Assembly: GCA_008632985.1 (NCBI GenBank) | Contig: QPGO01000098.1 | Span: 235,958 to 299,957, forward strand | Source of the DNA: Psammoneis japonica | Lineage: Eukaryota | Reading direction: 5' to 3' | DNA length: 64,000 nt | Shown here: positions 4,731 to 61,693 of the stretch, in pieces | Position numbering within the stretch: position 1 is the first letter of the stretch | Layout of the letters: every line of letters begins with the position of its first letter | Position numbers and translations under genes: made by a program | Notes under the pieces: generated by a model | What the model saw: the letters and a program-made list of their open reading frames with translations, nothing else | Database searches by the model: none | Told to the model about the DNA's origin: nothing

Positions 4731-5810
4731 TCAAGGCTCCCACCTCGCTGCATTACAAGCAGCCTTGTGGTTCTTCCAATCCGCTGCAAAGCAATCATTG
4801 TTGCAGTGCCAAGCAATTTTGCAATGCGAACACACCATCATGTCCTCTGCTTCCTTGCCACAATGGTGACACTGAGGAACAACCTCTTGGAGTAGGTTGC
4901 ACACCCTCTCCGCCTCCTCTGAAACATCACCCACAGGACCACGCGACCCATTTCGTTGGACACCCTTCATGACAATGTCACCACCAGCGGCAAGGATAGA
5001 CAGACGGTTGTCACCATACATCGGGTCAGACAAAAATGGCATCACACCGGTCCCGTTCCATTGGATGATTGGGTGGTTCGGAAATCGCTTCAGGCTAGCG
5101 AGAATGTTGGGAATGCCTCCACAACAACGGATTTCAGATGGCAAGGATGACATTTCTTCAATGCCTTTTTTCGCAGTCATCCTTGCCATTGAATCCATCA
5201 AGGACAGCGCCAAGTTGCCAAAGACCTCCTGCTCGCGTTGCAGGCTTTGAGCCCGTGAATGCTTGAGGATGTCCACAACCATTGCGACGCCACCGGCTTC
5301 GCGCACAGCTTCGAAGTGATTGTCTTCAGACAAGTCACATGACAGTGTAAGCGAGTGAAAAACAAGGCTGCCTGCTGCTTTAGCTTCTTCATCTTGGTGC
5401 TTTTGCTGCGCGACAAGTGTGTTCATGGAAGTAATCACAATTGGGATTCCACCGCTCTCAACAATGGCCAATCTGTTGTGTTTGTTGCCGCTGCTGTTGA
5501 CATTCGCTGCAGTGTAAAGCAGACTGCAACACAGTCTCTGAATGCATGCTAGCTCGGGATTCTCACGCATGAGAGTGATGATGGTGCTCATTCCACCAGC
5601 TCGAACAAAAGCTTCGGTTCGCGCTTTGTGCTCGTCGTCGCAATCGTCGACAACAAGTTCCCCAAGTCGATGCAAAGCATTGCAGGCCCCTTTTGCGTCA
5701 TCTTCAGACACGCATTTCCCAGGCAAGGAAGCGACGAGCGCTTGAATCATTGTCTCAAGAGGCTGTGACCCTCCTTTGACTTGCACGCGTCTGCTTTTTT
5801 TCTTTCCCAT
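4731..5810 (-). CDS. Armadillo-repeat protein with C-terminal MYND zinc finger (open but mutated, possibly non-functional)
   Basis: 359-aa ORF; repeated AIVESGGIP/AVREAGGV/CCGGIP ARM-like motifs; CHHCGK...CSHCKIAWHCNNDC...DWKNHKAAC MYND finger, with the usual YC reading HC. Confidence 0.8.
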   Translation of the reverse strand: MGKKKSRRVQVKGGSQPLETMIQALVASLPGKCVSEDDAKGACNALHRLGELVVDDCDDEHKARTEAFVRAGGMSTIITLMRENPELACIQRLCCSLLYTAANVNSSGNKHNRLAIVESGGIPIVITSMNTLVAQQKHQDEEAKAAGSLVFHSLTLSCDLSEDNHFEAVREAGGVAMVVDILKHSRAQSLQREQEVFGNLALSLMDSMARMTAKKGIEEMSSLPSEIRCCGGIPNILASLKRFPNHPIIQWNGTGVMPFLSDPMYGDNRLSILAAGGDIVMKGVQRNGSRGPVGDVSEEAERVCNLLQEVVPQCHHCGKEAEDMMVCSHCKIAWHCNNDCFAADWKNHKAACNAARWEP

Positions 5811-6559
5811 CGTTGATGCTTGATGTGCATTGCGTTGTCATTGTGCGACTTGCTGCTCCGCGGTCATCATCACTTGCGGCGCACGCGCCGCTTCACCTGC
5901 CGCTTGCAGCGCGCGACGTAGCGCGCGTGCGTCCAGTTGGGCGCATGTGCGTCTTGGCGCGTTTTTCCTCGTGTCCGCACAACGGCAAGACCATGGAAGA
6001 AGCGATTTTGCGCGTGCGTGCGTGGTGCATGCCCAGCCAGAAGCAATGGAAGCAGTCACTTGCTTTGTCACCAGAGATCATTGTGCGGCAGAACACAAAC
6101 AATGCCCAATGGAATCTGTTGTCCCTGTTGGAAGATGGAATTTGGAGTGACCAATTGACTTTTGAGTGGCTGGGCTTTCAGAAGAGATTGGGTTGCATTG
6201 AAGCATCATGTTCGGGGTGCATTTTGAGGATTGTGCACAGGCACTGGGAGCAACCCCAGGAAAAATGAAGAGCAAGGCTGACTCAGTGGCCTCACAGGTC
6301 ACATTTGGAGCAAGCATTCAAGCAAAAGAAAAGACTGTCTGGCTCTGGTGTCCTGCACGCTGCCCACCACTTTCTGGTGCGCGCCCATGGAGAAACAAAA
6401 AACTCCAAAATCTCTCATTCCTCTTGCTCAATGCTTCCCCCAGGATGCACCAGCTGCATCTCAAAAGCAATCTCCATGCAAGCAACATCAACGCTGCTGC
6501 ATCATCTGGTGCAGATGATGGACAAACCTTTTCCTGTCGTGTGTCTTCACACCCTCTGA

Positions 6560-7140
6560 GTTCGATGCAGCTCCAAAAGCTGGCAAAGGTGTTGTCGCAA
6601 CATCCACACACTGCCCCCTTGGCTTCAGACTCAAAAGAGGCAGATGAAAGTGTCCCAGGCATCCTGGCATGCCTCTCAAGAGTGGGCTTCTTGGATCCTT
6701 TGAAGTCTCCGCCAGCAAGCCATGCTGCGCTCAGACATGTGAGGTTTGTCCAGTCCGACACTGCAACACATCCATTGTTGCAGCTCCAGGTGACACCACA
6801 ACAGCTGCAAATGATCATGTCAACCAGTTCCCTGTCACAATGGCAACACTGAGAAATGACCTTTTGCAGCAGATCCATCGCAAGTTGTGCCATCTTGGCA
6901 AGCTCTGGACTGCGAAATGCGCTGGTGTGCTCCAGGATGTTTTTCACGATGGTGGTGCCACTGCCAGCAGCAAGGGCTGGTGAAGGGTTGCCATCCCATT
7001 TTGTGGATGACATCGCCATCATCATCCAACTTCCAAACCATGAGATGTCATCCATGCCTGGAAAGTGCACCAAGGCAGCCAGAACATTTGGGGGGCCTCT
7101 GAAGAAATGGATTGTTTCAGCAACAAAAGATGAGAGTTCC
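6560..7140 (-). pseudogene. Third, strongly decayed ARM/MYND copy
   Basis: LLQKVISQCCHCDRELVDMIICSCCGVTWSCNNGCVAVSDWTNL matches the C-terminus of 4731-5810. Confidence 0.7.
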
Positions 7141-8044
7141 CGGCTGTTGCAACTTTCATGACAAACCATGTGGGGTGTGATTTCGCACATCAAAAAAGCA
7201 CTCCAGTGCAAAAGACACCATTTTTCTCTTCTGTGGTGAAGGCACGTGTGGCCTGTTCCAGCTCCAGGTGATGCGCAATGCATCATGCAAAAAGCCGATT
7301 TTTGGCACAGTTCAGCACATTGAACTCCTTCAAATTTGATCATTTTGAAAATTGAAAGGCAATCGCACACAAAAAAACACATGTTTTGTGTGCACGATTG
7401 CCCTTCGATTTTGGCCGGTGATGGGAATTGAACCCCAGCACATCACCTGGAGCTGGAACAGGCTGTGTGTGCTTCAAGATTCCCACAACCCATGTGAACC
7501 CACCAGCATCTGGCATGAATTTTCCAGCATTTTTCCATGCCGGGGCTTGTCATGCAATGGGATCATGCAACGGGCTGTGAGTGCTGCAAAACATGTCTTT
7601 TCATTGTGTGGCAGTTTTTTGCACAACCCAATTGCCCAAAGAGGCAGTTGCAAAAGGGACTCCTTTGCTTGCACAAATGGCTTGTTTGTTGCCATCACTG
7701 TCTTCCAGCATGCTGCTGCACAAAAAACATGGCAGCCCCAAAACTGAATCTTTGCACCCTGCTTGTGCTGGTTGTGCACAAGATGCACAGTGGCTGGCAC
7801 CCAAACCACCTGCACGAACAATGGCAGATGCCAAAGTGAGACTGCTGCTTAGTTTGGTGGCAAGATTGTGAAAACACTTCAAAACCATGAGTGATTTCAG
7901 CCCACACAAATCAGCGGCCAGCACCACTGAAGTTGCCCTCACAAACTGTGCTTGCCCTTGACCAAGCTGCACCTGCTTTTCTTTCCCATGGTTGCAATGA
8001 GTTTTGTTGCAATGTTCACACAGCTCAGACTTCAGAGTTGGGGG

Positions 8045-8365
8045 CAGTCTAAGCCCTAGGTGGGACTCCGTGTGACATTGGGCCCGTAGAATTCTACGTG
8101 CGAGCTCCGCAGTACGAGAATTTAATTAATGGATACATTTATCTTCAACATCAAATAAACGGCCAAGTTTGTGGTACAATTATGCCTCTTACCACTCGAC
8201 GTTTTTGCAAATGCACCTGCCCTACGCGATTCTTAAGTGTACCGTAAAATGACACAAAATATCGAAAAAATCACGTAGAAATCTACGTGCGCGACATACG
8301 ACGTGATTCAAAAAACTGTCGATGTCACAGTTCAGTAGTGCGAGGTCCCACCTAGACCTGGAACA
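8045..8365. mobile_element. MITE-like element, least-mutated copy
   Basis: Inverted repeat CTAGGTGGGAC (8056-8066) / GTCCCACCTAG (8345-8355); non-coding; homologous decayed copies near 26945, 38520 and 62453; exact ends and TSD uncertain. Confidence 0.75.
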
Positions 8366-9149
8366 CGTCTGGCAAGATGCTCACATGCACGCAAAGAAAT
8401 GAATCGCACCTCAAACTTCAGCTCAAGTTTCAAGCTTGTTCTCTCAAAGTCTGTGCAGAGGAGATTGTTGCAGAGGGAGAGCAAATGAGAATTGGAGGAT
8501 TGTAAAAATGACAGAGTGAGAACAACAAAATGGAAGAATGCGCTGGTCGTTGTCATGGTCGGTGATGCCCTGCTTCATGTGCTGCGTTTTCTGTTCTCAT
8601 CACTGTGCCACACAGAGTGTGTGTGTGCTCCAGCTCGCTGATGACGGCTGGCCCAGGACAATGCTTTGCCGGCAGTGCATTGTCCCTCGCATGTCGTTTC
8701 AATGATTGCACGACAAAACATCGAGAAAATGAATGCGCGAGCACTCTTTGTTCTTGGGCGGTCGTCGAACGCTGGTGGCAAAAAATGAGCCAACATTGTC
8801 GCACAAGTGGAATCACACACAAATGTCACACCAAGTGTCGGAGGGAGAAATTGGCCAAAGCGCCTCAACAGAACGACACCCAACACCCCCAACACATCAC
8901 CGCGCAAGATGTGCGACCGAAACCCATGAAACAGGCGATCGAGTGATCGGCTTTCGGATGAGGCATTGTTCCCGCTAGCCGATGAATGGAAATGAGAAGC
9001 TCGCCAGCAATTGCCAGAAGAAATTCCAAGCTTCAACAACAACTGTTTCGTTTCCATGAACGGGGCTCCATGCGCCCATCCATGATGTTGCGTCAACTCA
9101 GCAGCAGAACCGCATCAGCAAAAACTTCTGTCGGTGTCTGCAACAAAAG

Positions 9150-9790
9150 CCAGAAGAGAGTGAACACTCAACTGAGAGGGATTTGGCAGAGGTTGTTTCC
9201 TGGTCAGACGCTGATCAAGGTGTCGAGGTTGACGACCATGGTGCTCCGCTTTTATGGAACAAGCTTTTTCGTTTCAAATTCTGGAAACGGCAGTGGATGA
9301 TGTCTCGGCACACCCTCATGTCTTGCCGCCTCCACTTCTTGTGGAGGGTGTTCAAGCCTTCATGCCAGAATCACTGACCGAAACGCACTTTTGGCTCAAA
9401 TGCTCTCTTGTTCGTGATGGTCTCGGCCTGATGAGATTGCTCCGATCGGTGCGTGGTTCGACAAAACACGGTTCTTTTGCCATTGAGACAACCGAGGGCT
9501 ACGTGTTTGGCTCGTTTACTTCTTTTCCATGATGGCGACTGTCCAATGGACGGTGTTTTGGAAGTGGAGAATCATTTTTGTGGAGACTGAGAAAATCCCG
9601 TCTAACTGGTCTCTTTCGCCAACCCAAATGGCTGCCATGGAGGGTGAGCTGGAGCAGGTCTTTCCATGCGCGCAGTCAAACAATGCCGTTCAGTGCTGTA
9701 GCCGAGATGACATCAATCTCAAAGTTTGCACCATGACACCATGGACACAGTTTCAAAGGCAGAAAGAGGAGGAGCTTTCAATGCAACGGA
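9150..9790 (+). pseudogene. TLDc-domain gene remnant, copy B
   Basis: HVLPPPLL...FWLKCSLVRDGLGL...IETTEGYVFGSFTSFP; disrupted frame. Confidence 0.7.
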
Positions 9791-10174
9791 ACAAGGAGGG
9801 GAGAGCGCACAATTCAGCCATCCAAGGACAAGCAGATGCCACAACAAGTGTGTCGGACATTTCGTCTCGGTGCCACATGTTCTGGAGCTAGAGAAGCATC
9901 GTGACATGGAGCGACGTATTCATGGAAAGTAAAGTGATCCTGCAGTTCACATCTGGGCATGCACGTAAGACTCCAAGTCTCTCGTGGCTGTTCTCTGCTC
10001 ATGCTCCTGCCAAACCGGAAGCGGATTTGTGCACAAGCAACGTGCGCGCCGCTGCACCAGGAATTTCTCCTTTCATGGAGTGCAGGGACCTTCTGAGTTC
10101 ACCGGCTCCAAGCCAGTGAAATGATTCTCGAGACCCTGCCCCCCAATTCACATTGAAGTCACTCAGTCAATGCC

Positions 10175-11272
10175 TCACAAAGACCAACCTTGGTTGCTTC
10201 GAGGCCTCCACCTCGCCGCATTACAAGCAGCCTTGTGGTTCGTCCAATCCGCTGCAATGCAACCGTCATTGCAGTGCCAAGCAATGTTGCAACGCGCACA
10301 CACCATCATGTCCTCGGATTCCCTCCCACAATGACGGCACTGAGGAACAACCTCTTGCAGCAGGCAGCACACCATCGCCGCCTCCTCTGAAACATTGCCG
10401 ATGGGATTGCACGACCCATTTCCTTGGACACCCTTCATGACAATGTCACCACCAGTGGCAAGGACAGATGGACGGTTGTCATCATACACCGGGCAAGACA
10501 AAAGTGGCATCATCCTGGTCCCGGTCCATTGGATGATTGGGTGGTTCGGAAATCACTTCAGGCTGTCGAGAATGTTTGGAATGCCTCCACAACAAAGGAT
10601 TTCAGATGACAAGGATGACATTTCTTCAATGCCTTTTTCCAAAGCCATCCTTGCCATTGACTCCATCAAGAACAGCGCCCATTTGCAAAGGTCCTCATGA
10701 CGGCTTTGCAGGCTTGGAGCCCGTGAATGCTTGAGGACATCCACAACCATTGCGACGCCACCGGCTTCGCGCACAGCTTCGAAGTGACCATCTTCAGACA
10801 AGCCATCCAATGGGCCAAGTGAGAAATAAAAGCAGCCTGCCGCGATTTTTTTGTCATCTTGGTGCTTTTTCAGTGCGACAAGTGTGTTCACGGAAGCAAC
10901 CATGATTGGGATTCCACCGCTCTCAACAATGGCCAATTTGTGTTTGTTGCCGCTGCTGTTGACATTCGCCACAGTGTCAAGCAGAATGCAACACAGACTC
11001 TGAATGTACGCCAGCTCGTGATTCTCATGCATGGGAGCAATGATGGTGCTTGTTCCGCCAGCTCGAACAAAGGCTTCGGTGCAGCCACGCACTTTGTGCA
11101 CGTCGTCGCACTTGACAAGCATGCCAAGACGCTGCAAAGCATCGAAGGCCCCGTTTGCATCATTTTCAGATGCGCATTTCCCAGGCAAGGAAGCGACGAG
11201 AGCTTGAATCGTCTCAATGAGAGGCTGTGACCCTCCTTTGACTCGCATGCGTCGGCTTTTCTTTCCCATCAT
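10175..11272 (-). pseudogene. ARM/MYND paralog, interrupted
   Basis: ORFs 10553-11272 and 10175-10513 are in frame and separated by TGA where copy A has CGA (Arg); highly similar to 4731-5810. Confidence 0.85.
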
Positions 11273-12487
11273 GGATGCTTGCTTGATGAATGCGTTGTCA
11301 TTGTGCGACTGCTGACATTGCCGTGCGGTGCTGCCATTGCCGCACGCACAACATACGTGACGGACGGACGTGCGCCCAGTTGGGCGTCTGTCTTGGAGCG
11401 TCTTTCCTCAAGTCTTAAGACCCGTCGTGCTCGTGGTGGAGGGGTGCAATTCGGGGTGTAATTTTGGGGTCCCCTCAAAAAAAAATTACAGCCAACAAAT
11501 GGGCTGCCAGAGGCATGTGTTTTTTTTTCCTGTGAAAAATTCTGGGAGCCTGCAATTTTCCGCACGAAAACAGACTCAACTCATCATCATCCATGACGGC
11601 AGAAACATCCGAGCATCGAACAACAATGACAACCAACAATCAACAACGAACTTCAGCCAATGAGAGATGTAAAAAATTGTTGCTGGGGAGCTGTTGTGAT
11701 GTGCTCACGAAGGAAAGAACGGCAAAAAATGATGAGATGGAGTCAACGGACAACAAAATGATGACAACTTCATGTCTTTTCTGAAGAAAAACATGTCATG
11801 TGGTGGCTGAAACCTCAGCTGTGGACACAACAATTGCACACATCATCAACCACATCATTGCAAATCAACTGGACTTGTCAGAACAGCAATTTGACATGCG
11901 CGAGGTCACAGCGGAGCCGCCGAACGCCACTGTGTTTTGTTGCAGTCATTTGAATCTTCAACCTCCTCGCGTGCAGATGAGTTGATTAAATTGGAGATGT
12001 GGAGTTGTTCCTGCTCAGTCATCATCAATTTTTCAGGAGCACATGTTCAATGCAGATGTCAATTCTTGCAGAATTGCAGTTGTCAAATTTCAGACTCTCG
12101 CAAGGACCAAGGCGAGCGCACGGCTGCACGAAGTTGTCAGTCCCGTCTGCTCGTGACTCAGTGCATTTCTGTGGCAAAAATTGTGCAGGAATTCGAAGAT
12201 GACAAAAACGGCCAGATGATTTCCACCAACTGCAATGTGAGCTGCACCTGATGTACATTCTTTGTTCGTCAACACTTGAGTCAACTGTTTCAGGCGTCAC
12301 ATGCAGCTGCTTTGATGAGCTGGAATTTCTCCGAACGAACGACGAATCGTGCGGAGCAACAATGAACAAAGCAACAAAACAACAAACCCAGCATGTCATT
12401 TCACTGTTAGACCTGCACAAGCCCTCAGCACATGGCCCTACTCTCAACGGAGATGTTGTCTCCCAGCTGATTCGAACATGCACTTTG

Positions 12488-12596
12488 ACGCGGTCGTCGA
12501 ACGTTGGCGGCAAAAATGAGCTAACATTGTCGTACATGTAGAATTATACACAAATGTCATACGAAGTGTCGGAGGGAGAAATTGGCCAAAGCGTGG
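12488..12596. repeat. Third copy of a ~110-bp non-coding segment that begins duplication copies A and B
   Basis: gtcgtcgaacg..gagctaacattgtcgtacatgtagaattatacacaaatgtcatac..gggagaaatt; also at ~2640-2735 and ~8758-8862. Confidence 0.85.
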
Positions 12597-12830
12597 GCGT
12601 GCGTAACATCACGACGCGACACGTCACCACCAAGAATGGGCGCGGCCGCGTCGTCGTCGCAACTGGTCGCAACAACACAGCAACCCTGAGATGATATCGC
12701 AAAGCGACGTGGGAGAAAGGCCCGTCATTGCGTGTGCCTGATACGCTTTTTGTACAGTACGAATACGTACTTTTGTCGAAGCAGCTCTCTCGCGGGTTAA
12801 CAGCTGAAAGAGACTTGCAGCAAACACACA

Positions 12831-14146
12831 ATGATGAAGTTTTCTCGAGTAGTACATGCCGCTTTTCTGTCAGTTTTATTTCCGCTTGTTGCAAAACCAT
12901 GCTACAGTCTTGTTGCTCCATGGTCGGGAGGAGGCGCAGCAACAAGTCGAAATATTATTCCAAAAGACTGCAACGTATTGATATTGCCCGGATTTGGAAA
13001 TGACTCGTCAGATTATACCATGCCGGGTTCGCTCGTGTCGTCGTTGCAAAAACGTGGCTGGGCACCGGATCAGATTCGAGTCCTAAAAGTGGAACGAAGA
13101 GATTGGTTGCAAGTGTTTTTGCGGGGTGCGTTTGATTTGCAATTTTGGTTGGCCAATGCGGCTCCGACACGACCGGCCTTTGAATGGTATCTGAGTAGAG
13201 TGGTTGAAGAAATTAAACAAAGTCAAGAGGCCAACAGAAATGTGCTCTTGGTTGGTCACTCGGCGGGAGGTTGGCTTGCACGGTGCGTGTAGCAACAAGA
13301 CATCATGATGGATGGCAATTTTGTGTCAAAGGTTTCTGATATGCGATAGTTTCTTATTTCGTTTTGCAATCCTATTGCAGGGCCGCAGTGGGATATGGGA
13401 GTAATGCAAGCAATTCCGAGTTGCAAGAAGATGATGAATCGTCCACAGCGCCCGTGAATCTTGATAAAGTGCTGGGAATAGTAACTCTGGGAGCGCCAAA
13501 CCTTCCTCCACCACCAGGAGTCATGGATATGACAAGAGGAGCTTTGAGGTTCGTCGAAATGAAAGAGAAGCGACTCATTTGAACAATCGATTGATCATCC
13601 GTACAGTCTCAACCAACCTCACCATTTTTGTTTTAATTTTTTCAGAATCACAAATGAAGATTTTCCTGGGGCATTTCATGCACCATCTACCTTTTACGTG
13701 ACTGTCATTGGTGAAGCTGTAAAGGGTAAGGAGCAACAGCGATCGTCGCCCTTGGAACCCACCACTGTGGATGGATTTGCCTTTCAGTCCTACCAGGCTG
13801 TGTGCGGTGACGGCAATACCATTGGTGACGGCGTGGTTCCAATGTGCGCGGCACACATTGACGATTCCATTCAAGTGAGTTTTCATATTATTTTGCTATT
13901 GATTCATTCTATGCATGGCTAATTGCGTACCGTTCTGCGTGTCCTTTGCTTCTAACCCTAACCTTTTTACAGCTCGATTTGCGGGGTGTCTTTCACTCCA
14001 TCAACAAACCAGACCAATGGTATGGGTCCGACAGCATTCTCGATCAATGGCATGATTGTGTCTTGGGGGAACTAGAAAAGAAAAAGGGTACAAGCGCCGG
14101 TGTCCCAAACCTCTTGGAGTGGTTTCAGCCTTCAAGGCAACAATGA
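12831..14146 (+). CDS. Alpha/beta hydrolase (PGAP1/lipase-like), multi-exon
   Basis: ILPGFGN, nucleophile GHSAGG, VTLGAP, GDGVVP and GVFHS motifs spread over exons; introns approximately 13283-13380, 13549-13646 and 13875-13972; signal peptide. Confidence 0.85.
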
Positions 14147-16311: not shown

Positions 16312-16327
16312 ATTGGACTCAGCACTC

Positions 16328-51563: not shown

Positions 51564-52954
51564 ATGGAGAACCAGTTTCATAATAGCGCAAACACTATAC
51601 TTTACAACCCGGGAGCGGCTGAAAGCTCTGCAGATTCATATCCAATGCAAGGGATTGATTTTCCTGGAGCAAACGATGTTATGCTTGGTAGGGGCGGTAA
51701 GTGTATCAGTCGTATTGTAGGATGTCATTTGTGTTTGTAGCTCGGAAAATCTCGGCATATGTAGCCGAGTCTCTTGTCTCGTACTTACACATGCTTGAGC
51801 CTCAACATTTTTTTGAATTTTGCTTCTTCTGTCGATTACTACTGACTACAGGTCAAACAAATAATCATCTCGGTAACATTCGCTTTAGAAATCTCGTAAA
51901 TGATCATAAGCGACGATACTTGGCTGCTCCAAAGGTGGATAAACCAAAGGTAGCTCTCGATGTGGTCAAGATTTGGAGAGGTCTGGAACCCCCCGGGCGT
52001 TTTCTAACCAAGACCAACACAGAAAAGGGCGACGCGAGTTTGTGGCATGATGTAGGGGACAAGAAAGCCCGCGAAAAGGCATCCCAATGTCTCCGAGAAC
52101 GAACTCCAGATGTGATGCCTTTTGTGAAACAGCTGGAAGAGCAACAGCAATTAGAGAAAGAAAGGAAGGAGAGAACTGGAGCAGAGAAGCCGGATAAAAA
52201 GCCCATGATTCACCCATCAAAGGTGGTTCCTGACGGGGAAGCCTCTTCTGCTGCACTCCAACCGCCACCTCAAAACTATAGGCCTCCGAGTAAGAGGACA
52301 AGCTACGAAGAGTCAATACCTACTGGTGAAGACCTTACCAGAGTGGTATTCAACGACGACGATGCTCGGTCGTTTATGGACGATTACCAACAAGTGCTGC
52401 ATGACTTGGCCTCATCAGATGTTGCGGAAACTGTTCCATCAGAAGCAGTATCTTCCGACGAGGTTCGGCCTCCTCTACCTAAAGAACAGAGCGGGTTTTC
52501 CTGGATGAAGTCCTTCAAATCCGTGGATAGCAATTTCAGTGGAATGGACACTTCACTTCAATATACTGTGGATGAAGGAGGCGAAGAGGAAGACGAAGAA
52601 GTAGACCGGCCCCTGGACGTGTCTGCAAACGGGAATGCAAATGAAAAGATGCAGGCCAGACCCGCCGTGCTTCCAACATCTCGACCCTCATTGGGTGATG
52701 TCAATCGAAAACCAAGAATGGTGGGCGCTGCCTATGCTCGAGATAGTCAAATGTCTCTCATGTCTGATTTGAGTTCTAGGTCGCTCATGATGGCAAATTC
52801 TGGAGATCAAGCGAGCAGGCGATCTCTCATGATGGGAAATGCCGCAGATCAAGCCAGTAGACGTTCCGTCATGTCCGTAATGTCCGACATGACGGAACTA
52901 TCAGACGCGCTCAAAGACATGGATTTATCAACAGTGGGCGAAGCACCACGGTAA
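51564..52954 (+). CDS. DUF6824-domain diatom protein, 2 exons
   Basis: NDVMLGRGG/QTNNHLGNIRFR..PPGRFL..WHDVGDKKAREKASQCLRE joined across intron 51697-51851. Confidence 0.88.
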
Positions 52955-53202
52955 CGAAAGATGCATGGGTATCGCTGTGCGGCAGTGTACTAATTGGGAA
53001 AAGGCGAGGTGGATACTAGATTGTATCAATTGGGAGGAGTACTACGGGTTTGGGAAACTGGACCCGTCTAAGTATTTGTATAGGTCCTTCTCTACAAGGT
53101 TTCGGTTATGGTTTTGGTGTTTCGTATTTTTGTTAAGGAGGCTACGCAAGTGGGTTGAATAAGTGGTTCGTGGAACACACGATATATGCTAGCGATGTTT
53201 CT

Positions 53203-54729
53203 TTATCGAATCGCCTGTCCAAAGGGAATGTTGTCAAGCACAGATTCTTGCCTCTTAAAAGGTGGTGGAGTCCCAAAGACGTTTCGGAAAACCAACCTCT
53301 CATCGTTCGTCCCGCATACAACTGCCGACCCGTCGTTGCTTTGGTCCAAGTTGAGGACTCTGCAGCCCGAAGATTCCAAGCTATCCTTCCATTGGAGTTC
53401 GGGGTGTGTGTAGGACCACAGCGTGAGCTCGTTGGCTCCCCAACTATGCGACGAAAGTAATTCCGGTCGATGTTTGGACCACAGGAGGTCTGTGACTTGC
53501 GATTTTGTTTCAACAGAATGCTGCACTTCTCCGTTATTGGTGTTCCACAACTTGATGGTTCCATCCGTGGTTCCGGAGCCACTTGCGAGCATGCGTGGTC
53601 GAAATGGACACCAAGCCAAGGCCTTGACGGCTGCCTTGTGGACGTCAAGGGTGAGTCGAGGAGAGGTGGAAGGAATTGCTTCAAAGTACGCCGCGCTTGA
53701 CTTTTTCGCGTCCCATAAACAAATCCGATTGTCGTTGCCTCCGCTAGCCAACGTGTCTCCGGCGGCGTTCCATTTTAACCCGCAAACCTCTTGCAAATGC
53801 GCTTCGCACCGTGCGACAATGTGGTACCTCATCCTGACGTCATGGTGAATAATGGAAGAATCACGAGATCCCGAAGTCATGATATTCTTGTTCCATGCAA
53901 TGGAACCAACACGAGCAAGGTGACCAGACATGGTTCGGATCCTTCTGCCGGCTTGAACATCCCACAGTTCCGTATTACCCGCCTGTGTGGCGATTGCAAG
54001 AACCCTGTCATTGTGATAGTGCGCCCACGATACACAAGAAACTCCTCCTTCGTATGGCGCCACATTCATTAAATGACTGACTGCACTCTTGTGGAAATCG
54101 TATAAATATACGTTCCCTTGGAGTGCAACGGCGAGAACATCGGAAGAGTTCCAACTCAGCGTATCCACGTAAAAGTCGTCGGCCAAAGCGGGAGCGTCAA
54201 GGATTCGGAAGGGTGTCTTCGATATACGTTGTCTACGTTCGGTAGAGACGGATTCAAAAGCGGCGCCATTCCCGCGCAAATTGATGTTATCCAATCGTTG
54301 GAGAACGTGGAGCGTGTCGTGCGACGAAGGATCATTCACATACGGCGAAACCGTCCGTTTATTCTCGCCGAAGTGAAGAATGCGTTTCGTGTCTCCGTCG
54401 TCCGATAATTCCTCCAATGGAATGTCGAGTATCGCTGCTTTCATTCGACGCTTATAGTCGGACTGAAGTTTGGCAGCGGCCTTATCGGATTCGGACACGT
54501 CGATACACTCTTGGCTAGGCTTCTTGGAGGCACGGATACTCGAGTTGCAACTTTCGAGGTTCATTCGTGCACGATTGGGGATGAATCGATCTCCCGGAGT
54601 CGTAACAATGCGGCGACGCTTCGCGCTGCTTCTCGGAGGAGTCATCGCAAACCGAGGAGCCTTGGACGTGTTGGGATAGCAACGGGACGGGGTTGCCGGC
54701 GTATTACGGAGTGGTGTCATGGTATTCAT
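53203..54729 (-). CDS. CDC20: CDC20/Fizzy-family APC/C activator
   Basis: C-box DRFIPNR, RILDAP, WD40 repeats (QEVCGLKW, LASGGNDN, AAVKALAWCP), C-terminal IR tail. Confidence 0.93.
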   Translation of the reverse strand: MNTMTPLRNTPATPSRCYPNTSKAPRFAMTPPRSSAKRRRIVTTPGDRFIPNRARMNLESCNSSIRASKKPSQECIDVSESDKAAAKLQSDYKRRMKAAILDIPLEELSDDGDTKRILHFGENKRTVSPYVNDPSSHDTLHVLQRLDNINLRGNGAAFESVSTERRQRISKTPFRILDAPALADDFYVDTLSWNSSDVLAVALQGNVYLYDFHKSAVSHLMNVAPYEGGVSCVSWAHYHNDRVLAIATQAGNTELWDVQAGRRIRTMSGHLARVGSIAWNKNIMTSGSRDSSIIHHDVRMRYHIVARCEAHLQEVCGLKWNAAGDTLASGGNDNRICLWDAKKSSAAYFEAIPSTSPRLTLDVHKAAVKALAWCPFRPRMLASGSGTTDGTIKLWNTNNGEVQHSVETKSQVTDLLWSKHRPELLSSHSWGANELTLWSYTHPELQWKDSLESSGCRVLNLDQSNDGSAVVCGTNDERLVFRNVFGTPPPFKRQESVLDNIPFGQAIR

Positions 54730-55099
54730 GGTGGGGGCTTTCGATGTGCGTCTTCACTGAGAACTGTGATGGTAATGGGTGTCGTGGGGAGCACAATCAT
54801 GTTTCGCTCCGTTGTTGTGTGATTGTTTCTCGACCGTATTGAGTTAGTTTTTTATTATTTATACCTTCATTAAATTTTTATATAATCGCCAATGATCTTC
54901 ATCTGGAATGTTTCCTCAAACCTGTTAAATACCGGGACTGGCTCACGTCATCGTGGTATAAGAAGGCTTGAAACAGACAAATTCGATTATATGAGCCTGC
55001 ATATAACTATTTTTATCTTGCCATTTCTCGCCCATCAGCCCCACCCAGCAAGCAAAATTGAAAATCCGACATCCACATCCGAACGGTAAAGTACGATTC

Positions 55100-56290
55100 C
55101 ACCCAAGCATGCTAAAAGACCTATCTGAAACAAACACTCATCAGGTTCAGCGAAAAGTATCCAGCACCAATCGGAGTGTCTTGATCTTGAATGAAAGTGA
55201 TGCAAAGGATGGATCCATGCGCGGGTCTCCCACAGCAGCAATAAGACTAGCAGGTCGCTGGATTTCGCGACTGTGTTCTTGTGCCGAACTATTCAGACGG
55301 CAATCGCAGAGGTCACTTTCTGGCCAAGATCCGTCCATGAAATGAGGCTTGTCGCGTGGAGTGCAACAATGAAACCTAAACCTCCCAAGCTTCCTCGTAC
55401 TAGTCCACCCGACGATGGCGGCTTGGGAGGATGGAAAGGTGTGGATGGTTCCGACCCCTTCTTGACCGAACTCAAATCTTCATCTAGAGCGCCCAAGAGT
55501 GCCAAAGCAAACGAGTTGGAAGCTGGCGGTGACGCTACCTTGTCGGCTGTAGCTTCTTCGGTTTACGGGGGTTGCGCACAGCAACCTAATTGCTGCACGA
55601 GTACATTATGCACGCCACCCATGTTATCTTCTGTATTTCAGACGTCATGAGTCACCGCATGGGCGACCGTCCCCATGGCTTGAACAGAAAAAGTCGTTGA
55701 GGCGCGTTCAAGGGCACGGGCACTCAGATATTGAGCATCCTCCACAACGCTTGGAACCTTGATGGAAGTATCCATGATCCATGACAATCTCAACCGGACA
55801 AGCCACTTTTAGGACGTACTGCCGTACCGACAAGAAGCGCTCTAGTGTAGCATATCTCCTGGTCCATTTAGGTAGTAGCTCTTGCGTCACAATAGTTTGG
55901 CATGAAGGCATTTCCCGTGGAATCTGTTGTACCTACAACGAGAGGGGATGTAGACATGCGCTCGCTTGCCCCAAGTTGATTGTCATGACGTCGTCGTCCT
56001 CGTATGTTGCACGTGTTTTGATTTTCGCCGGGTGGCTAAAATAGCAATGGGCGGCTTGGATCGTGTAGGATTCAAATATGGTACTGACTTGCGTATCATC
56101 CTTTTCGCGCTGTTGTTGCACACACATTCCAAGCAGGACAAGGTTAAGTTCTGCAATTCTTGCAATCGCAGCTTGTCCTTCCATGTGCGGATCTGGCACC
56201 TCGTTTCGGTATGAATTTTTGTGACGTGTTCAAACACGAGTATAGTAGTAACAAAAGCCCGCTGTGCACAATGAAGAAAACAAATCATTC
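55100..56290 (-). pseudogene. Possible fragmented gene of unknown function
   Basis: Consecutive minus-strand ORF pieces (55933-56199, 55708-55911, 55293-55505) with protein-like composition; no recognised domain. Confidence 0.3.
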
Positions 56291-56761
56291 TTTACATCGT
56301 CGCCTTGAGAATCAGAAGTAAGTCTCAATAACAAGTCTAGAGCTTCTAGGAGATGGAATCGAGATCTCTCTGCCACTTTAATACAATGCCTACATCAACT
56401 GCAGAAACATCATTCAGACTTCGTTTTCGTTCCTCTGCAACCATTATGATGCTTCAATCAGACACAAAAGCAAACCGTAAGGCATGAGCAGCATGATAAC
56501 AACTCACGCTTCAAAACAGCATGTTGCAACCATCATCCTCAAACGATGTCGGTCCGACTTCGTTCATACTTTTCAACTTCAAATAATCAAGGTAATGCCT
56601 CTCCCTTTTTAAAGCATACTCTCCTCTCTAGTTCTACGCTTGGCAAAGGAATACATACAACGGCATCTCACATCTCACACCATTTCTCACACCATTTTGA
56701 ATGGAAAAAAATATTCAAAATGGTGTGAGATGCGAGCGATGATGAGCGATGAGATAGAAAT

Positions 56762-59700
56762 GGACTTCGTGCCTTTCAAAATCTCGGTTGCTTTTGCGCG
56801 CAGCGCACAAACGCAGCGGAACTGAAAAAAATTCTCTGCCGAAGACTCACTCCGACATGATGGAGTGAACAGCAACAGGCACCGGCAATCCATACGGACC
56901 ATCCGAAGCTCACTGTCGCTACATAGTCTTTATAAGATGGGTGTACAACTAGGCTCTAAGCTCCTGCATACGCTGGGAGGCCTGACGTTTTCGCAAATTG
57001 TCTCGTTGTGCTGCAAGAGGGCGGAAGATGCATGCCGCGTGGGTTCGCCGGCTGTTGCTGCGGACATGTCGTGGCTTTGTCACAAACTCCGCAAAACCAC
57101 CATTGCCAATACAAGAACTTACATATCAGAATTTGTATTGAAGTTTATTGGTGAAGGTTTCGTCTTCTACGCGGCGTTTGATCCAGATTGTCGCCATCAT
57201 ACGAAAAAGGCCTCCATGCGGCGTGAATTCGATCGTCAGCACAGTGTGGCCGACTGTGTCGGTGCGAAGACTAAACTGCATCAGATCTCTCGTATTCTTC
57301 GTGAAGAAACATATCAAAATGAAGGGGAGAAGCACATCTTGAAGAGTCAGCTTGAAGATTTGGAAAAAAGGGTCAAGAAAGCAGAAAAGGCCAGTGCAGA
57401 AGCTCAGCGGCACCCAGAAATTGTTGACAGTGCGCGAAGAGCCATGGAGGATCTGGCAGTGTTACACCCTGGAAAGGTTGTGATTGTTACAGGGAAGTTT
57501 CAGGCTGACAGTTATGTTCAACATCTGTTGACAGCCAAGACCGTAGATCTGGCTGTTGGGAATGACACCGACTTCTCAATCATTTCTGGAGAGGCATGTT
57601 TGCAACTGTCAAGCTTCAGCATTGCTGTTAAACAAAACAGACGCCGCAATGAAGCAGAAATTAAAGAAGGAACAGTTGCAACTGGGTCAAGTCACACAAT
57701 CCAAAACGTCCGTGGGCATCTTGGCAACACCGTTGGGAATTACAGGGCCGCGGACCTCCCTTCACTTGATGGCATTGCTGATCTCCGAACTCGTTGTTTG
57801 ATTGCGGCATTGTTTGGAAACGACACTTTCCCAAAAGAATTAAAGAGTCTGACATTCTTTAAAAACATGGGGCCGGCTGCAGTGCGTGACATGATCCATC
57901 GCATTGGTCGAGATGCTGATGGCAATGTTCCTTTTGAGGAACTGCTGTCGGAAGCCTTGGATGCGGCAACCCGCAAGAAAGACGCTTTGAATGCAGCGGC
58001 ACAGAAAGAAGGTGCATCAGATGCTGCAGTGCTCAAACAGCAGCAGCACACAAGACTGGTCGAACTGACACGACCAGTCTTGAAAGCTCTTGTGGAAGCG
58101 ACGGCGCATGAGCCAGCGACAGTCGCTCAGTCTGGAGAAATGCTGTGCTCTGTTTGTCCACCAATCGGGCCAGTGGATCACTACATTGAAGACTTTGTCA
58201 GTGGAGATGACATTGGACTGGTCACACGTGAGTGTGAGCTTGGAACTTGTCCTGGCCCCTGTCCCTCTCACGGCCACATTTGTGTGACGGGAGAGGGCAA
58301 CCGAGAGTGTGGAAAATGCGGAAAGACGTTTTGCCTGATGTGTGCAGTTAGAAACGAAGACGAATCTGGAAGCACCGACGTGGTGTGTGTCCCTTGTCTT
58401 GGAGCCACAACAGATTCTGTAGATCCTGTGTCCAAGTTGTCAGAGAATGCATTGCGGGAGGCGCCAAGCGACAAAATTGAAGTGCCGGCTGACATGCCGA
58501 TGGCGGATCTCCAGGAACTGTACATTGGCATTGTGGAGGGCGACTCAATGGACTCTTTGGATTCAAAAATGTTGGAGCAAGTGCGGCATCCATTGTGCCA
58601 CCCAAGAGCACTAGATTCGAATGAGAAAGTGTTGGATTTTGTGGCTGATTTTGACTTTCGAGATGGCGCTCGCTTTCTTCGTGATCGTGATCTCACCTGC
58701 ATGCAGCGTTGTGGTGTCATGAACCTGTTGGCAGACCTTGTCACATTTGGGAAGAACAAAAGCTTGCCAAAGCATGCAGAGGTGCTGCCATCACTTATCT
58801 CAAAATTCGCAAGCGAAGCAAGAGTCGACAGCGGAGAGCGTTTGATGAAGCGCTGCGCATGACACGCTCTCGACCCGAAATCGCCATCAATGCTCCATGC
58901 ACATGGCAGCATGATGGAGCACAATGGAGAAATGGGCCTCACAATGCATGACAAAATGTCACCATCGTTCAAGGATGGCATGTGTGCCGTGTCATCGGCA
59001 TTTGCTGCATCCGATTTGTTGGCCAACAGATGCGAGTGTAAAGCTGGAGCGGAAAATCAGTCAGTGGTGGCAGAGGTTGGCGGGACCAGCACCGACGATG
59101 CGGGAAAGCACGTGTGTGTACACTGCCTTCCGGTGCCGTGTAAGGTCACAATTCTTTTGATGGATGGTCTGGCAGAACACGCTCTTGTTGAGTTCTCGTC
59201 GTGTTTTGGCTGTCACGAGGAAAACAGCCCAGATGTTTCGGACAAAGAAAAATTGAGAATGTCCATTCTAACGCTGATGGATGCCGCCAGTTTTAAGAGT
59301 GCCGATTCTCTCCAATCGAAGTCGCCACATGAGCTGCTGCAAGCATTCGCGGTTGGTGCAGAGAGGGGCAAGAACAAGCTGCCCGACCCACCTGACCCTG
59401 AAAAGTTGGGGCCAATGCGGAACTTCAAAAGAGTTTCACCAGAGGAAAAGGCAAAAATGGCATTGAAGATGAAAGAAGAAAAGACGGCAGCATCAACCAC
59501 GAATGTGGCAAATGAATCGGACACCTTGCCCGAACCAGATCATCTGACAACATCGCGGCTGTGCCGCACCTTCGCCAAAGTTCTCGCTGACAACAAAAGC
59601 TTGGATGAGACAATGATTGTCGGGCATCGTTTGCTTGACCTGCGTGCAAAGAAAGTTGGTGCAACTGATGCTGCCATTTCTTTGGTGGATGCTGGGCTAA

Positions 59701-61693
59701 GGCCGAGGGTCAAACAACTGTTCCAAGCAGCAAGAACCCGTGTGGATCCACGAACAAAAGCAGCAGAGGCAAAAAGGAAACTCGCAGCAGAACATTCGGA
59801 GGAATCAGAGTTGCAACTGGAGGCGCAACCAAATGATGCAACGGAATCATCAAATGAAACAAAGCGTCGGGTGTCGAAACACCCGGCATCAAAAAGCACC
59901 CGTCGCTGCTGCTGCCAAAACTGCAACAACAACATTGCCACTGGTTCCAAGATTGTGCCGCCTGTTCCTGCCAAACCACCGGTGGGAGCCAGTCGCAACA
60001 GATGGATGACGCACTTCAAGAAACGGTTTGATTGACATGAATTTCTGCGACGAATCGGCGCAGATGAAAACGACTCATGCAAAGATCTCAGGATCTGCCT
60101 CTGCCACCCAGTGGAAACGACCACAAAATCTTTCACCGTGACGACACCAGCATTGACACCAGTTTCGTCACCACAAGGCGGAGAAGACGAGTCGGACCAT
60201 GAAAATGGCGAGTTAGAAAAAGGAGACGGTGCAGATGGGGAGAAAAAACCGACAGTGTTTTCCAAACGTGCTGCATTTGAAGGCCTGCCTGTTCCTTTGG
60301 GCGCCAAAAGCAACCGATCCGAGGCATCCCCTGCCACAACTTCTAAAGGGGTGGGAGAAGTGCGACAAATGGTGCGCTTTGCTGCTTTGGATCACAAAGT
60401 TGGAGAAGAGGCTGTGCGAAATGAGTGTCTTGCTGTGCAGCAACGCACGGAAATTGAGCCGGGTGAACGAACCAAAATGATGGAAGAGGTCCATCCACAT
60501 CTCCAGCAGTCCACAGGACCAGACCAGCACATCAAGTCGCCACCAAAGAAGAAGAGAGCCACCGAAATGACCAAACCTTCAAAGGGCAAACCGTCGACTG
60601 CCACTGTTCCGCCTGCAGTTGATCCTCACCCCATTTCGACTGCTGACGTTCAAACTCGCTGTGGGTTTGGATCCTTGTTGTTGCTGCTTTGTTTCATTGC
60701 GGTTGTTTGCAATGGTGACATTTCTGCAATGATGAAAACAACAACAAGATTGAGTTGGTTTGAAGAATGGTTTTTTTTCTTTGAATTGCTTTGGGGGCGG
60801 TCTCTGCATCGCTGGGCAGATGCAGAGCGCACATGCAAAATGCACCACAAATGTCTTCAGAGAACATTCAAACAAAAGCTTGCTCTTGTTAAGTTGGCAG
60901 CAAATCGGTGGCCGCGACGCGTTTGTCACGAGGAGGACGTGTCCCTGCGCTCTGAGAAATGGAAGGAACAGCACAGAAACAAGCGTGTTGCAATGTGGGA
61001 CAATGCAAATGTTGATCTGATGGGGAAGCCTACAGATGCAGATTTGCAGCGACTCACGCACTCACTTCATTGCGGCGGGAACTTGTCAAAGGCGGCATCT
61101 TTCTGCAACTTTGTGGGTGGCTTGGCGGCTGGGAGCTTTGGCTGGGAGCGGTGTCAGACTCAGACTGTTTAGAGAAAAGTGGGCTGATGCAGCACCAAGA
61201 ACAATTTCAAAAGATGGACCCAACCTCCACGCTGTCTTTCACAAACATCTTGGACAAGGGATGCCGGTGTGTTTTGGCCGCGTGGCGAGGAGGGGGGCAG
61301 CTGCTGCTTCAGCCATTCTTTGCTAAAAGTGATGGAAAGTTTGCCAGCCGTGAGGTCCTTTTGTCAGGTGCAGTTGCCAGTGACAGGTCGGGGAATGAGC
61401 GAGCGGTCAAGCAGATGAAAATGAGCAACTTGATTGCTGGCGGCATTCATCAAAAACAAGATCTGAACAATTTTGCTGATGTCTGGATTGCCTGGGGTTT
61501 CCAATGCAATTTCATGCATGAGCCAGTGCTTTAAAACAACTGCAGCATTTTCACTTTACCTTGTAGAAGCTAGATGTTTTGTTTTGTCTTGTTGTTCTAG
61601 ACTCCACTGTGTCGTTTCTGTTGTTTCGTGCGGGGCATGCTGACAGCCAAGTAACCCGGAAAGCAACCGAGAAATTCGAAAGGCACAAAGTCC
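56762..61693 (+). mobile_element. Full-length ISL2EU-like (PHIS superfamily) DNA transposon, 4932 bp
   Basis: TIRs GGACTTCGTGCCTTTCAAAATCTCGGTTGCTTT (56762-56794) and reverse complement GGACTTTGTGCCTTTCGAATTTCTCGGTTGCTTT (61660-61693); AT on both flanks (56760-61, 61694-95); internal DDE transposase. Confidence 0.88.
56937..61534 (+). pseudogene. ~1530-codon transposon polyprotein: EXO1/XPG-like nuclease - Zn finger - SWIM - THAP - Harbinger-type DDE
   Basis: ORFs 56865-58862, 58890-60035 and 60111- share one frame, broken only by TGA at 58860 and 60033; one frameshift near 61083; motifs MGV..DMSWLCHK..AFDP..K..QAD..NDTD..FGND; CECKAG..CVH; CCCQNC..W..LRICLCH; WDNAN..KGGIFLQLCGW..GAVSD..LDKGC..DRSGNERAV. 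Confidence 0.8.

Follow-up and report, generated by a model that had tools for sequence, protein, structure and literature searches.

TpA-specific hypermutation of integrated viral DNA has been described from Bigelowiella natans, a chlorarachniophyte (Mettrop et al., bioRxiv 10.64898/2026.01.13.699255, 2026). The mutation was measured directly in mutation-accumulation lines, in which it occurs at a rate about 1000-fold above background and is active in some lines only, and its main target is single-copy (bioRxiv 10.64898/2026.01.13.699255). Among the Pfam families enriched in the TpA-poor coding sequences of this alga are DDE endonuclease and a zinc finger; a large number of the affected sequences could not be annotated (bioRxiv 10.64898/2026.01.13.699255). 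Full-text literature searches did not turn up any account of diatom repeats losing TpA, the B. natans preprint being the sole description found.

Animal deaminases comprise ADAR (A-to-I in dsRNA) and APOBEC (C-to-U), which work on RNA or single-stranded replication intermediates and leave their mark on one strand. Fungal RIP, known from ascomycetes, deaminates cytosines before meiosis and needs RID and DIM-2 (in part, PMC9998398). Diatom transposable elements are CpG-methylated (PMC9998398).

In this study, we analyzed a 64-kb stretch of diatom DNA, hereafter the window, focusing on the direction of a TpA loss, its borders and its consequences for proteins. As judged from its sequence, the window holds a real diatom case of the very recently described process, with CpG decay added. 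The pattern very probably reflects a locus-targeted, in-place hypermutation of TpA to CpA or TpG on either strand in transposon-derived, repeated or duplicated DNA, as read from one window and from contigs of the same sample.

TpA-poor domains of the window

About 29 kb of the window consists of sharply bordered TpA-poor domains with a TA o/e of 0.00-0.16, as compared with 0.5-0.8 elsewhere; for the whole window the o/e is 0.35 for TA and 1.43-1.44 for CA and TG. Many 1-kb windows contain 0-5 TA, normal ones 25-64, and the TA count along the window places the borders to within ~100 nt. The domains, which have no strand assignment, are of two kinds. TA-depleted but CpG-retaining domains lie at 2900-6000 (where 0-6 TA remain per 100 nt and, towards 6000, 0-2) and 8400-12450, over two duplicate copies, A and B respectively. 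The older domains have lost nearly all CpG as well as TpA. These are located at 6050-8000, at 24600-25600 (a 1-kb block whose edges are defined to about 100 nt), at 26700-41050 (a 14.4-kb block in which 33 TA and 87 CG remain) and at 61800-64000, the last continuing past the window end and having a repeat piece in common with 38752-38880. A domain depleted in CpG only was not found within the window by 1-kb window composition. Scans for tRNA genes and for Rfam families gave no matches in the window.

Mass balance was calculated for both kinds of domain. Doubly depleted domains have lost 39.5 TA and 48.9 CG per kb and gained 86.3 CA+TG, with a GC content of 0.479, and TA-only domains have lost 35.4 TA and 3.8 CG and gained 44.8 CA+TG, with GC rising from 0.474 to 0.509. 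The CpA+TpG excess matches the loss of TA and CG, which supports the direction TA->CA/TG. CA and TG are equal in number and not clustered by strand (runs-test z -1.35 to +1.10), and the flat runs tests revealed no one-strand tracts like those of single RIP rounds.

A cluster in the B. natans preprint is defined by TpA o/e <=0.43 and CpA+TpG o/e >=1.52 in at least 3 consecutive 1-kb windows. Every 1-kb window from 27001 to 40001 has a TA o/e of 0.00-0.10 and a CA+TG o/e of 1.72-2.01, and within this 64-kb window the TpA loss is confined to regions. The two systems thus have in common transitions at TpA only, to TpG or CpA depending on strand, confinement to regions, and TpA-poor clusters with a gain of CpA and TpG. 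They differ in host (a rhizarian there, a diatom, i.e. Stramenopila, here) and in extent, since the o/e is 0.45 for B. natans' NCLDV region, with a cluster cut-off of 0.43, whereas the window at 0.00-0.16 is near saturation. CpG is absent from the main text of the preprint, whereas the older domains of the window lose CpG too. The targets there are viral; in the window, a giant DDE transposon is hit together with unclassified repeats and a tandem ARM-MYND/TLDc gene cluster. Finally, mutation-accumulation lines provide the evidence there, whereas the process in the window is read from sequence.

RIP resembles the present case in that dinucleotide-specific transitions are made in place on duplicated or repeated DNA, on both strands and in sharp domains, and in that elements are lost to similarity searches. 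However, RIP changes CpA to TpA, raises TpA and AT and makes stops, whereas in the window TpA is lost, CpA and TpG are up, GC rises (0.474 to 0.509) and no stops are made. Decay of methylated CpG likewise turns CpG into TpG or CpA in transposon DNA, and it could cover the CpG half of the change together with two CGA->TGA stops described below, but it is unable to remove TpA, and the window has TA-only domains without CpG loss.

A genome-wide, untargeted bias against TpA that becomes visible only under relaxed selection, as in pseudogenes and dead transposons, would fit the mildly low TpA everywhere (o/e 0.5-0.8) and the neutrality of the affected genes, copies A and B of which share 73% of amino acids at 86% nucleotide identity. 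Yet the non-ORF DNA of the normal domains, neighbouring and unconstrained, is untouched: it has a TA o/e of 0.70 and 52.6 TA per kb, more than the 33.9 per kb of the ORFs there. TA being kept in such DNA, the process appears to be locus-targeted. This targeting of particular loci instead of the whole genome, the sharpness of the borders and the CpG loss that accompanies TpA loss in older domains were not emphasised in the original prediction. The borders, sharp to about 100 nt, also stand against an untargeted bias, as does a TA-normal island of 300 nt (8056-8355, no strand assigned) between depleted blocks, and we consider this explanation improbable. The island is MITE-like, with an 11-nt perfect inverted repeat at its ends and an inner 19-nt inverted repeat, and was probably inserted after the mutation of its flanks. 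Like the island, a 233-nt duplicate within a normal domain is not depleted in TA.

The ARM-MYND/TLDc cluster and the strands affected

Three ARM-MYND paralogs were identified, all on the minus strand. Paralog A (4731-5837) is an open frame of 368 codons with 2 Tyr, paralog B (10178-11407) has one in-frame stop, and the third, older paralog in the block 6050-8000 has an ORF at 6318-7442 with an ARM part reaching 7828, as found by BLASTP of P0282 against P0002 (E 1e-23) and by tblastn. For P0282, a Protein Atlas lead to MYND/Arm clusters at 0.82-0.85 was obtained, with which BLASTP then agreed; another such lead, for CDC20, pointed to Bacillariophyta. The zf-MYND profile was passed in both A (32.3 bits, E 1e-7) and B (33.4 bits, E 4.7e-8), the Pfam cut-off being 22.7. 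The original prediction had read His in place of the Tyr of the family in the MYND finger ('AWHC'), at the MYND aromatic position; the codon concerned, CAC at 4806-4808 on the minus strand, stands opposite Tyr in SMYD2, the single solved relative aligned, and both paralogs A and B have His here. A search within 202-644 aa returned no homologs of the ARM-MYND protein P0002 at E<=1e-5, so that only solved MYND domains serve as an outgroup for this gene.

On the plus strand, a TLDc-like remnant of copy A occupies two frames at 3466-4094. It had been claimed that copy A reads GCVFG where copy B reads GYVFG, and this difference (TGC at 3760, TAC at 9500) is real, but the match to the TLD family is below the Pfam cut-off: copy A reached 22.2 bits where 24.5 are required (E 1.5e-4 and 0.032), copy B gave no match at E<=0.05, and a PDB sequence search with the TLDc ORF returned nothing relevant.

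Copy A (3165-5855) aligns with copy B (8917-11314) at 82-84% identity. In 2447 aligned nucleotides, 40 TA are found in A and 14 in B, with 8 common to both. B differs at 32 of the TA sites of A, and at 28 of these it reads CA (14) or TG (14). Adjacent CA<->TG double differences between A and B number 32, while the other seven classes of double transition number 0, 1, 0, 1, 3, 0 and 6; repeat pieces in the doubly depleted blocks show 6 and 8 such swaps and none of the other classes. CA<->TG swaps between copies imply that the ancestor had TA or CG at these sites. The A/B counts give, by arithmetic, an ancestral density of ~45 TA per kb, and the normal domains today have 41.3. As read from the alignment, every TA lost from A or B was lost after their duplication, and the change was made in place, on both strands and independently in each copy after duplication or insertion. 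Residual TAs are mainly YTAR, and the share of TTAA among the sites is up from 0.04 to 0.38. These residual sites suggested that TAY is lost first, but a 3' pyrimidine at the mutated A was present in 13 of 22 informative A/B events, which is not significant.

The interleaving of CA and TG in each copy also bears on ADAR-like A-to-I editing of element RNA, fixed via reverse transcription and re-insertion. Such editing would account for A->G changes with a 5'-U preference, which is typical of ADAR (bioRxiv 10.64898/2026.01.13.699255, discussion), and the original prediction had proposed a copia element for the large block, with a gag knuckle reading 'CCCCG' (TGC at 38048) in place of a supposed CYCCG. 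Under ADAR only the sense strand, and only retroelements, would be marked. In the window, changes lie on both strands of resident DNA, and a DDE DNA transposon and tandem paralogs that are not retrotransposed are affected. No gag or zf-CCHC profile matched the supposed knuckle in Pfam, and a PDB search for it returned nothing relevant. Among 150 ORFs of 24000-41000, Pfam detected no transposon, gag or reverse transcriptase domain (two sub-threshold matches were at chance level), nor did it in 111 ORFs taken from the remaining depleted regions (a few sub-threshold matches). Animal deaminases and the present case are alike in A->G change with a 5'-U/T preference (ADAR) and in a defence-like action on repeats, and the RNA route is very unlikely.

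The transposase gene and the 14.4-kb block

The locus at 56937-61531 (plus strand, TA-depleted from about 57300) is one gene of about 1530 codons, colinear with its full-length relatives and belonging to a giant DDE_Tnp_4-type family. The relatives are metagenome proteins, taken to be intact on the grounds of length and a normal share of Tyr. In all four relatives scanned in Pfam, three of them full-length and among the ten used below, DDE_Tnp_4 was found at the C-terminal end (E 5e-6 to 1e-10), whereas the ORFs of the window itself did not reach the DDE_Tnp_4 cut-off and gave no match in Pfam; membership in DDE_Tnp_4 (PIF/Harbinger-type) is therefore assigned indirectly, via the relatives. 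No match to the family was found in viral_contigs.

Ten full-length relatives (1446-1977 aa) were compared with the window. At 15 columns with Tyr in the relatives, the window has Cys at 6, His at 5 and Tyr at 2, and the residue of the relatives is kept at 192 of 245 other conserved columns; Cys or His thus occurs at 11 of 15 conserved-Tyr columns (Fisher p 4.7e-7 against the other conserved columns). These eleven include the columns at 61262 (Tyr in 10/10 relatives), 61068 (10/10), 61071 (9/10) and 61059 (8/10), so that the reading of 'DKGC' (TGC at 61262) as a replaced Tyr is strongly confirmed. The prediction would have been contradicted by His or Cys in the relatives; at three columns of the 61016-61534 ORF, the relatives have Tyr instead (101/109, 117/126 and 66/96). 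All four quoted strings are present in the window at 4806-4808, 3760/9500, 38048 and 61262, and the predicted direction, TA->CA/TG, is borne out by mass balance, by CA<->TG swaps, by the Tyr->Cys/His columns and by normal TA in the transposase family, in which 66 of 67 loci are TA-normal (TA o/e 0.40-0.92). It follows from these loci that the depletion is not native to the element. The sole depleted locus, L031 on a metagenome contig, is poor in both TA and CG and keeps Tyr at 0 of 10 columns, and its signature is limited to the element.

The gene contains in-frame TGA codons at 58860-58862 and 60033-60035 and one frameshift near 61088-61124. Relatives have Arg at both TGA columns (10/10 and 6/10), which indicates the CpG route, CGA->TGA.

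The block at 26700-41050 holds repeat-family segments and no recognisable protein family. A total of 526 related contigs were found for it among the contigs of public runs, and its repeat nature is judged from contig depth; much of the block is at single-copy depth, about 55. The sequence is real, as the block is reproduced by these contigs. Of 465 differences between contigs and block, 40 were listed, and 11 of those 40 lie at residual CG/TA positions, a class covering 1.7% of the block; this is an indirect hint at a raised mutation rate.

These contigs weigh on the view that the pattern is an artefact of sequencing or assembly, such as systematic miscalls at modified bases in silent chromatin. 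The runs containing the stretch all derive from a single sample of a single study, possibly the very data that went into the assembly, which would suit an artefact. However, the contigs of those runs were built separately and differ by 1-17 per piece, and strand-specific miscalls at a palindromic dinucleotide would be expected to give mixed calls, with some TA/CG among them, instead of the clean CA or TG. The amino-acid pattern is moreover coherent codon by codon, and the same signature, on the element only, occurs in L031, an unrelated metagenome contig. We consider an artefact highly improbable.

Native composition, that is, foreign or selected DNA poor in TA and CG from the outset, has in its favour that the 14.4-kb block is without an outgroup and that L031 is likewise poor in both, but it is exceedingly improbable given the 66 TA-normal family loci, the Tyr of relatives at the window's Cys/His columns, the CA<->TG swaps that require a TA or CG ancestor and an inferred ancestral TA density equal to the host's normal one.

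Proposed process and its effects on proteins

Under locus-targeted hypermutation, TpA transitions to CpA or TpG would far outpace the background rate, and CpG in the same domains would decay more slowly to CpA or TpG, most simply through deamination of methylated cytosine. An enzyme-based, defence-like process may drive the TpA change, with adenine deamination in a 5'-T context as the leading candidate chemistry and thymine modification as an alternative, and repeat recognition, silent chromatin or foreignness could be the trigger. Duplication as a trigger would fit the three affected ARM-MYND paralogs, but the 233-nt duplicate in a normal domain is untouched and single-copy depth prevails over much of the 14.4-kb block. 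The targets are a DDE_Tnp_4-family gene, tandem ARM-MYND/TLDc paralogs and unclassified repeats, and no viral gene was recognised in the window.

It is tentatively possible that diatoms and chlorarachniophytes have in common a defence that is RIP-like but opposite in chemistry, in which a TpA-specific DNA adenine deaminase or thymine modifier aimed at duplicated or invading DNA would act in place and on both strands until TpA is gone, silencing by missense without stops. Such a defence would be still active and possibly ancestral to SAR. A process known from one rhizarian alga (2026 preprint) would extend to diatoms, and as diatoms are major phytoplankton with genetic tools, its enzyme and trigger would be open to experiment. 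A natural TpA-specific A:T->G:C activity on resident double-stranded DNA would also interest the base-editing field. Scans of TA o/e together with CA+TG o/e offer cheap mapping of targets across protist genomes. 'Dark' repeat DNA may find an explanation here, the 14.4-kb block and the transposase copy both being invisible to Pfam.

Effects on proteins follow the dinucleotide. Tyr accounts for 3.3% of residues in normal genes but for 0.4% in TA-depleted and 0.1% in doubly depleted ORFs, a pattern well outside chance, and in depleted ORFs the gain of Cys and His about equals the loss of Tyr. The removal of TAA/TAG stops and of xTA codons was observed as predicted. The TA route has made no new stops and is unable to make one, which fits the predicted disabling mainly by missense change; the transposase gene has just two in-frame stops, both of them TGA and both pointing to the CpG route. 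Long spurious ORFs, expected to be many, do occur, but the effect is modest: 16 ORFs of at least 150 aa were counted in 27000-40500, against about 15 expected by arithmetic at the reduced stop density and about 4 at the normal one, and by the same arithmetic such ORFs should arise by chance in mutated DNA three to four times as often as normal. Tyr-free, Cys/His-rich open frames arise in this way, and P0247 and P0250, two entries already among public representative proteins, resemble what mutated copies of this kind would encode.

Dinucleotide domains and codon content

The window carries a genuine, near-saturated signature of TpA to CpA/TpG hypermutation in a diatom, accompanied by CpG decay. 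Over the whole window the observed/expected ratio (o/e) was 0.35 for TA, 1.43 for CA and 1.44 for TG. Counts per 1-kb window were 25-64 TA and about 40-86 CG in normal stretches and 0-5 TA in others, and domain borders were sharp at 100-nt resolution. The normal state was found at roughly 1-2900, 12450-24600, 25650-26700 and 41100-57000. TA was depleted with CpG largely retained at about 2900-6000, 8400-12450 and 57300-61500, and both TA and CG were depleted at about 6050-8000, 24600-25600, 26700-41050 and 61800-64000; no stretch of the window was CpG-depleted with TA retained. Reckoned against the normal domains, TA-only domains showed, per kb, -35.4 TA, -3.8 CG and +44.8 CA+TG, with GC rising from 0.474 to 0.509, and doubly depleted domains -39.5 TA, -48.9 CG and +86.3 CA+TG, with GC 0.479; the losses of TA and CG balance the gains of CA+TG. 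CA equaled TG in frequency and the two were unclustered (runs-test z -1.35 to +1.10, seven regions), which indicates that both strands were hit without long one-strand tracts. Relaxed constraint alone does not remove TA, since non-ORF DNA of the normal domains (10,310 nt) was richer in TA (52.6/kb, o/e 0.70) than the ORFs there (33.9/kb).

From normal genes through TA-depleted to doubly depleted ORFs, the share of Tyr was 3.3, 0.4 and 0.1%, that of Cys 2.1, 4.3 and 6.3%, and that of His 2.5, 3.4 and 5.2%. The codons TAT, TAC, TTA, CTA, ATA and GTA collapsed, on each strand TAA and TAG fell from 8-10 to 0-3 per kb and TGA went from about 19 to about 24; this codon collapse and these stop counts confirm the removal of Tyr, xTA codons and TAA/TAG stops that had been proposed from the sequence.

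Direction and timing of the TA loss

Copies A (3165-5855) and B (8917-11314) form a segmental duplication of 82-84% identity, and were compared over four BLAST blocks that together align 2447 nt at 86.1% identity. A held 40 TA sites and B 14, with 8 in common. At the TA sites present in A alone, B read CA at 14, TG at 14 and another dinucleotide at 4; at those present in B alone, A read CA, TG and other at 3, 2 and 1. Adjacent double transitions comprised 32 CA<->TG swaps, against 0, 1, 0, 1, 3, 0 and 6 in the other seven classes. A CA facing a TG marks a separate single change in each copy of what was once TA or CG, and because 83 CG are still shared, the ancestors of most swaps were TA. These swaps, and the 28 of 32 A-only TA sites reading CA or TG in B, uphold the direction TA to CA/TG given in the original prediction. 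Shared sites, one-sided losses and discordant double losses were added up, and concordant double losses were taken to be as many as the discordant ones. The sum is about 110 ancestral TA for the 2447 nt (about 45/kb); this is close to the 41.3/kb of normal domains, so that essentially all TA loss followed the duplication, separately in each copy. Copy A retained 37% of TA sites and copy B 13%, less than for CG (about 80%), which puts the loss of TA at roughly 4-9 times the speed of CG loss. The A and B proteins share 73% of amino acids (266/364) at 86% nucleotide identity, about as neutral decay would predict.

The doubly depleted repeats agree: 38803-38901 against 27175-27274 gave 6 CA<->TG swaps among 19 differing positions, and 62645-62783 against 38752-38880 gave 8 among 38, with none of the other double-transition classes in these two pairs. 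A small control in a normal domain, 15351-15696 against 16328-16562 (233 aligned nt, 84.5% identity), retained its TA and had 1 swap in 36 differences; this duplicate adjoins GH18 and Spherulin4-like ORFs.

The block 26700-41050 was checked with contigs from two public runs belonging to a single sample and study, which may be the assembly's own data; a third run of that sample is on record beside them. The contigs spanned 24000-42000 at a word depth of about 55, each piece differing at 1-17 places. Depth rose to 220-770 at 27005-27605, 31212-32413 and 36621-40226, and 526 contigs aligned, 412 of them less than 95% alike, so that parts of the block belong to repeat families. A selected subset of 40 listed differences, out of 465 differing places, was classified: CG in the window against TG/CA in the contig in 8 cases and the reverse in 6, TA against TG in 2, CA against TA in 1, CG against CT in 1, two CA<->TG swaps (4 rows), and other changes in 18. 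In this selected subset, residual CG/TA positions, 1.7% of the block, account for 11/40 differences, a hint that both TA and CG are still hypermutable there. The related 100-nt pieces 27175-27274 and 38803-38901 lie 11.6 kb apart; in public-run contigs, sequence near 27244 is linked to sequence near 38810, and 27175 and 39944 are sites of several loose ends. The two pieces may form the terminal repeats of one large element, or a solo form may exist elsewhere in the genome. An 80-nt unit stands in two head-to-tail copies (29305-29384 and 29382-29461, 1 difference) inside the fully mutated block, and is a very recent tandem duplication of DNA already TA-free.

Conserved tyrosines in the transposase and other proteins

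A search of 1.84 billion representative proteins with ORF 61016-61534 gave 618 relatives at E<=0.001, of which 50 reached E<=1e-30; the ORF aligned to the C-end of ten relatives of 1446-1977 aa. By tblastn, 56937-61531 forms one gene, about 1530 codons long, which runs colinear with the full-length relatives from their residue 1 and has one frameshift near 61088-61124. Pfam scans of four relatives, three of the ten full-length proteins and one other, each placed DDE_Tnp_4 at the C-end (E 5e-6 to 1e-10); the window's own transposase frames gave no Pfam match. Many TAs (up to 8/100 nt) occur in the first 400-900 nt of the gene (56937-57800) and depletion is deeper downstream, a 5'-to-3' gradient within a single element.

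With a conserved column defined as at least 70% agreement among at least 7 of the ten full-length relatives, there were 15 conserved Tyr columns. The window retains Tyr at two, both TAC in the less depleted 5' part (58182 and 58521), and reads Cys (TGT/TGC) at 58983, 59139, 60834, 61071, 61166 and 61262, His (CAT/CAC) at 59541, 60012, 61059, 61068 and 61517, Arg (CGC) at 60918, and Phe at one. Thus the DKGC motif and the other transposase Tyr losses of the original prediction hold against full-length relatives, 11 of 15 columns reading Cys or His. Other conserved columns were kept in 192/245 (Fisher p 4.7e-7 against Tyr columns), and replacements at columns conserved for residues other than Tyr, Cys or His went to Cys or His in 1/49. 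Intact relatives with His or Cys at these places were sought in a wider set of 150 representatives; in the 129 with normal Tyr content, the three Tyr columns of ORF 61016-61534 held Tyr in 101/109, 117/126 and 66/96, where the window reads Cys, Cys and His. Its Cys/His pattern recurred in only 2/150, the public proteins P0247 and P0250. The gene has two in-frame stops, each a TGA standing where relatives have Arg (10/10 and 6/10), as the CpG route (CGA to TGA) would produce; no sense codon can become a stop through the TA route.

Three further examples fared less evenly. Copies A and B both have a real MYND finger, in which the cited His faces the Tyr of SMYD2, the single solved relative whose alignment was seen; this His is common to both paralogs. 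The TLDc difference between TGC 3760 and TAC 9500 is real, but the TLD match was sub-threshold. The string CCCCG is present at 38048, but Pfam and PDB searches gave no support for a copia gag.

Targeting, host and possible mechanism

TA o/e was 0.40-0.92 in 66 of 67 metagenome loci encoding this transposase family. The exception, contig L031 (5699 nt), has no DNA-level relationship to the window and showed TA 0.28, CG 0.26 and CA/TG 1.53, the depletion being confined to about 500-5000, the element itself, with more normal flanks. L031 kept 0/10 consensus Tyr positions, 5 reading Cys or His; the other 66 loci had Tyr at 392/565. TA loss is therefore a property of particular host loci and not of the element family, and at least one other environmental genome shows it too.

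The best matches of the AP-complex mu subunit ORF had 80-86% identity, every named one among the 120 listed being a diatom, and CDC20 showed diatom affinity at lower identity. Together with a DUF6824 domain, a diatom-typical feature, these matches identify the window DNA as diatom and not Bigelowiella. A full-text literature search returned a single description of such a TpA process (bioRxiv 10.64898/2026.01.13.699255). According to the main text of that preprint, two integrated viral regions in B. natans mutation-accumulation lines mutate at about 6e-7/site/generation, in some lines only, almost exclusively A to G or T to C and all at TpA; the genome has 124 TpA-poor, CpA+TpG-rich clusters, TpA-poor CDS are enriched in DDE endonuclease and RT domains and a zinc finger, and an ADAT2-like adenine deaminase is proposed. 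That main text makes no mention of CpG or diatoms, whereas here the host is a diatom and CpG is lost too; the diatom case adds to a kind of process otherwise described in this one 2026 preprint. Diatom transposons are described as CpG-methylated in the text of PMC9998398, which would account in an ordinary way for the CpG side of the signature. The original prediction was essentially right in observation and interpretation.

The loss is TpA-specific, in place, on both strands, domain-limited and later than duplication or insertion. CpG decays more slowly in the same domains. We infer that the process is enzyme-driven and targeted; flanking-base evidence is contradictory. The timing after duplication and the fact that three ARM-MYND paralogs, all on one strand, are affected suggest that it depends on repeats. 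The third, C, is older and more decayed and lies in a doubly depleted block (374-codon open ORF 6318-7442 on the minus strand, extending to 7828; BLASTP E 1e-23 against P0002, the ARM-MYND protein), giving a graded series in which A is partly TA-depleted, B TA-depleted, and C TA- and CG-depleted. Island 8056-8355 and the short duplicate 15351-15696/16328-16562 are unaffected. Spreading of TA loss from older silent DNA would fit the TA-only 2900-6000, which adjoins the doubly depleted 6050-8000, and 57300-61500, which precedes 61800-64000, but the doubly depleted 26700-41050 has no TA-only halo.

The island is a 300-nt stretch with 8-9 TA/100 nt between hypermutated blocks; with an 11-nt perfect inverted repeat at its ends and a 19-nt inner one, it resembles a young insertion of MITE type, one that either escaped the TA loss or post-dates it. 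A piece of about 105 nt occurs three times at 80-90% identity: 2623-2733 and 8747-8862 lie at or close to the left ends of copies A and B, and 12490-12593 lies where the copy-B domain ends on the right. These pieces may mark the unit boundaries of a tandem array.
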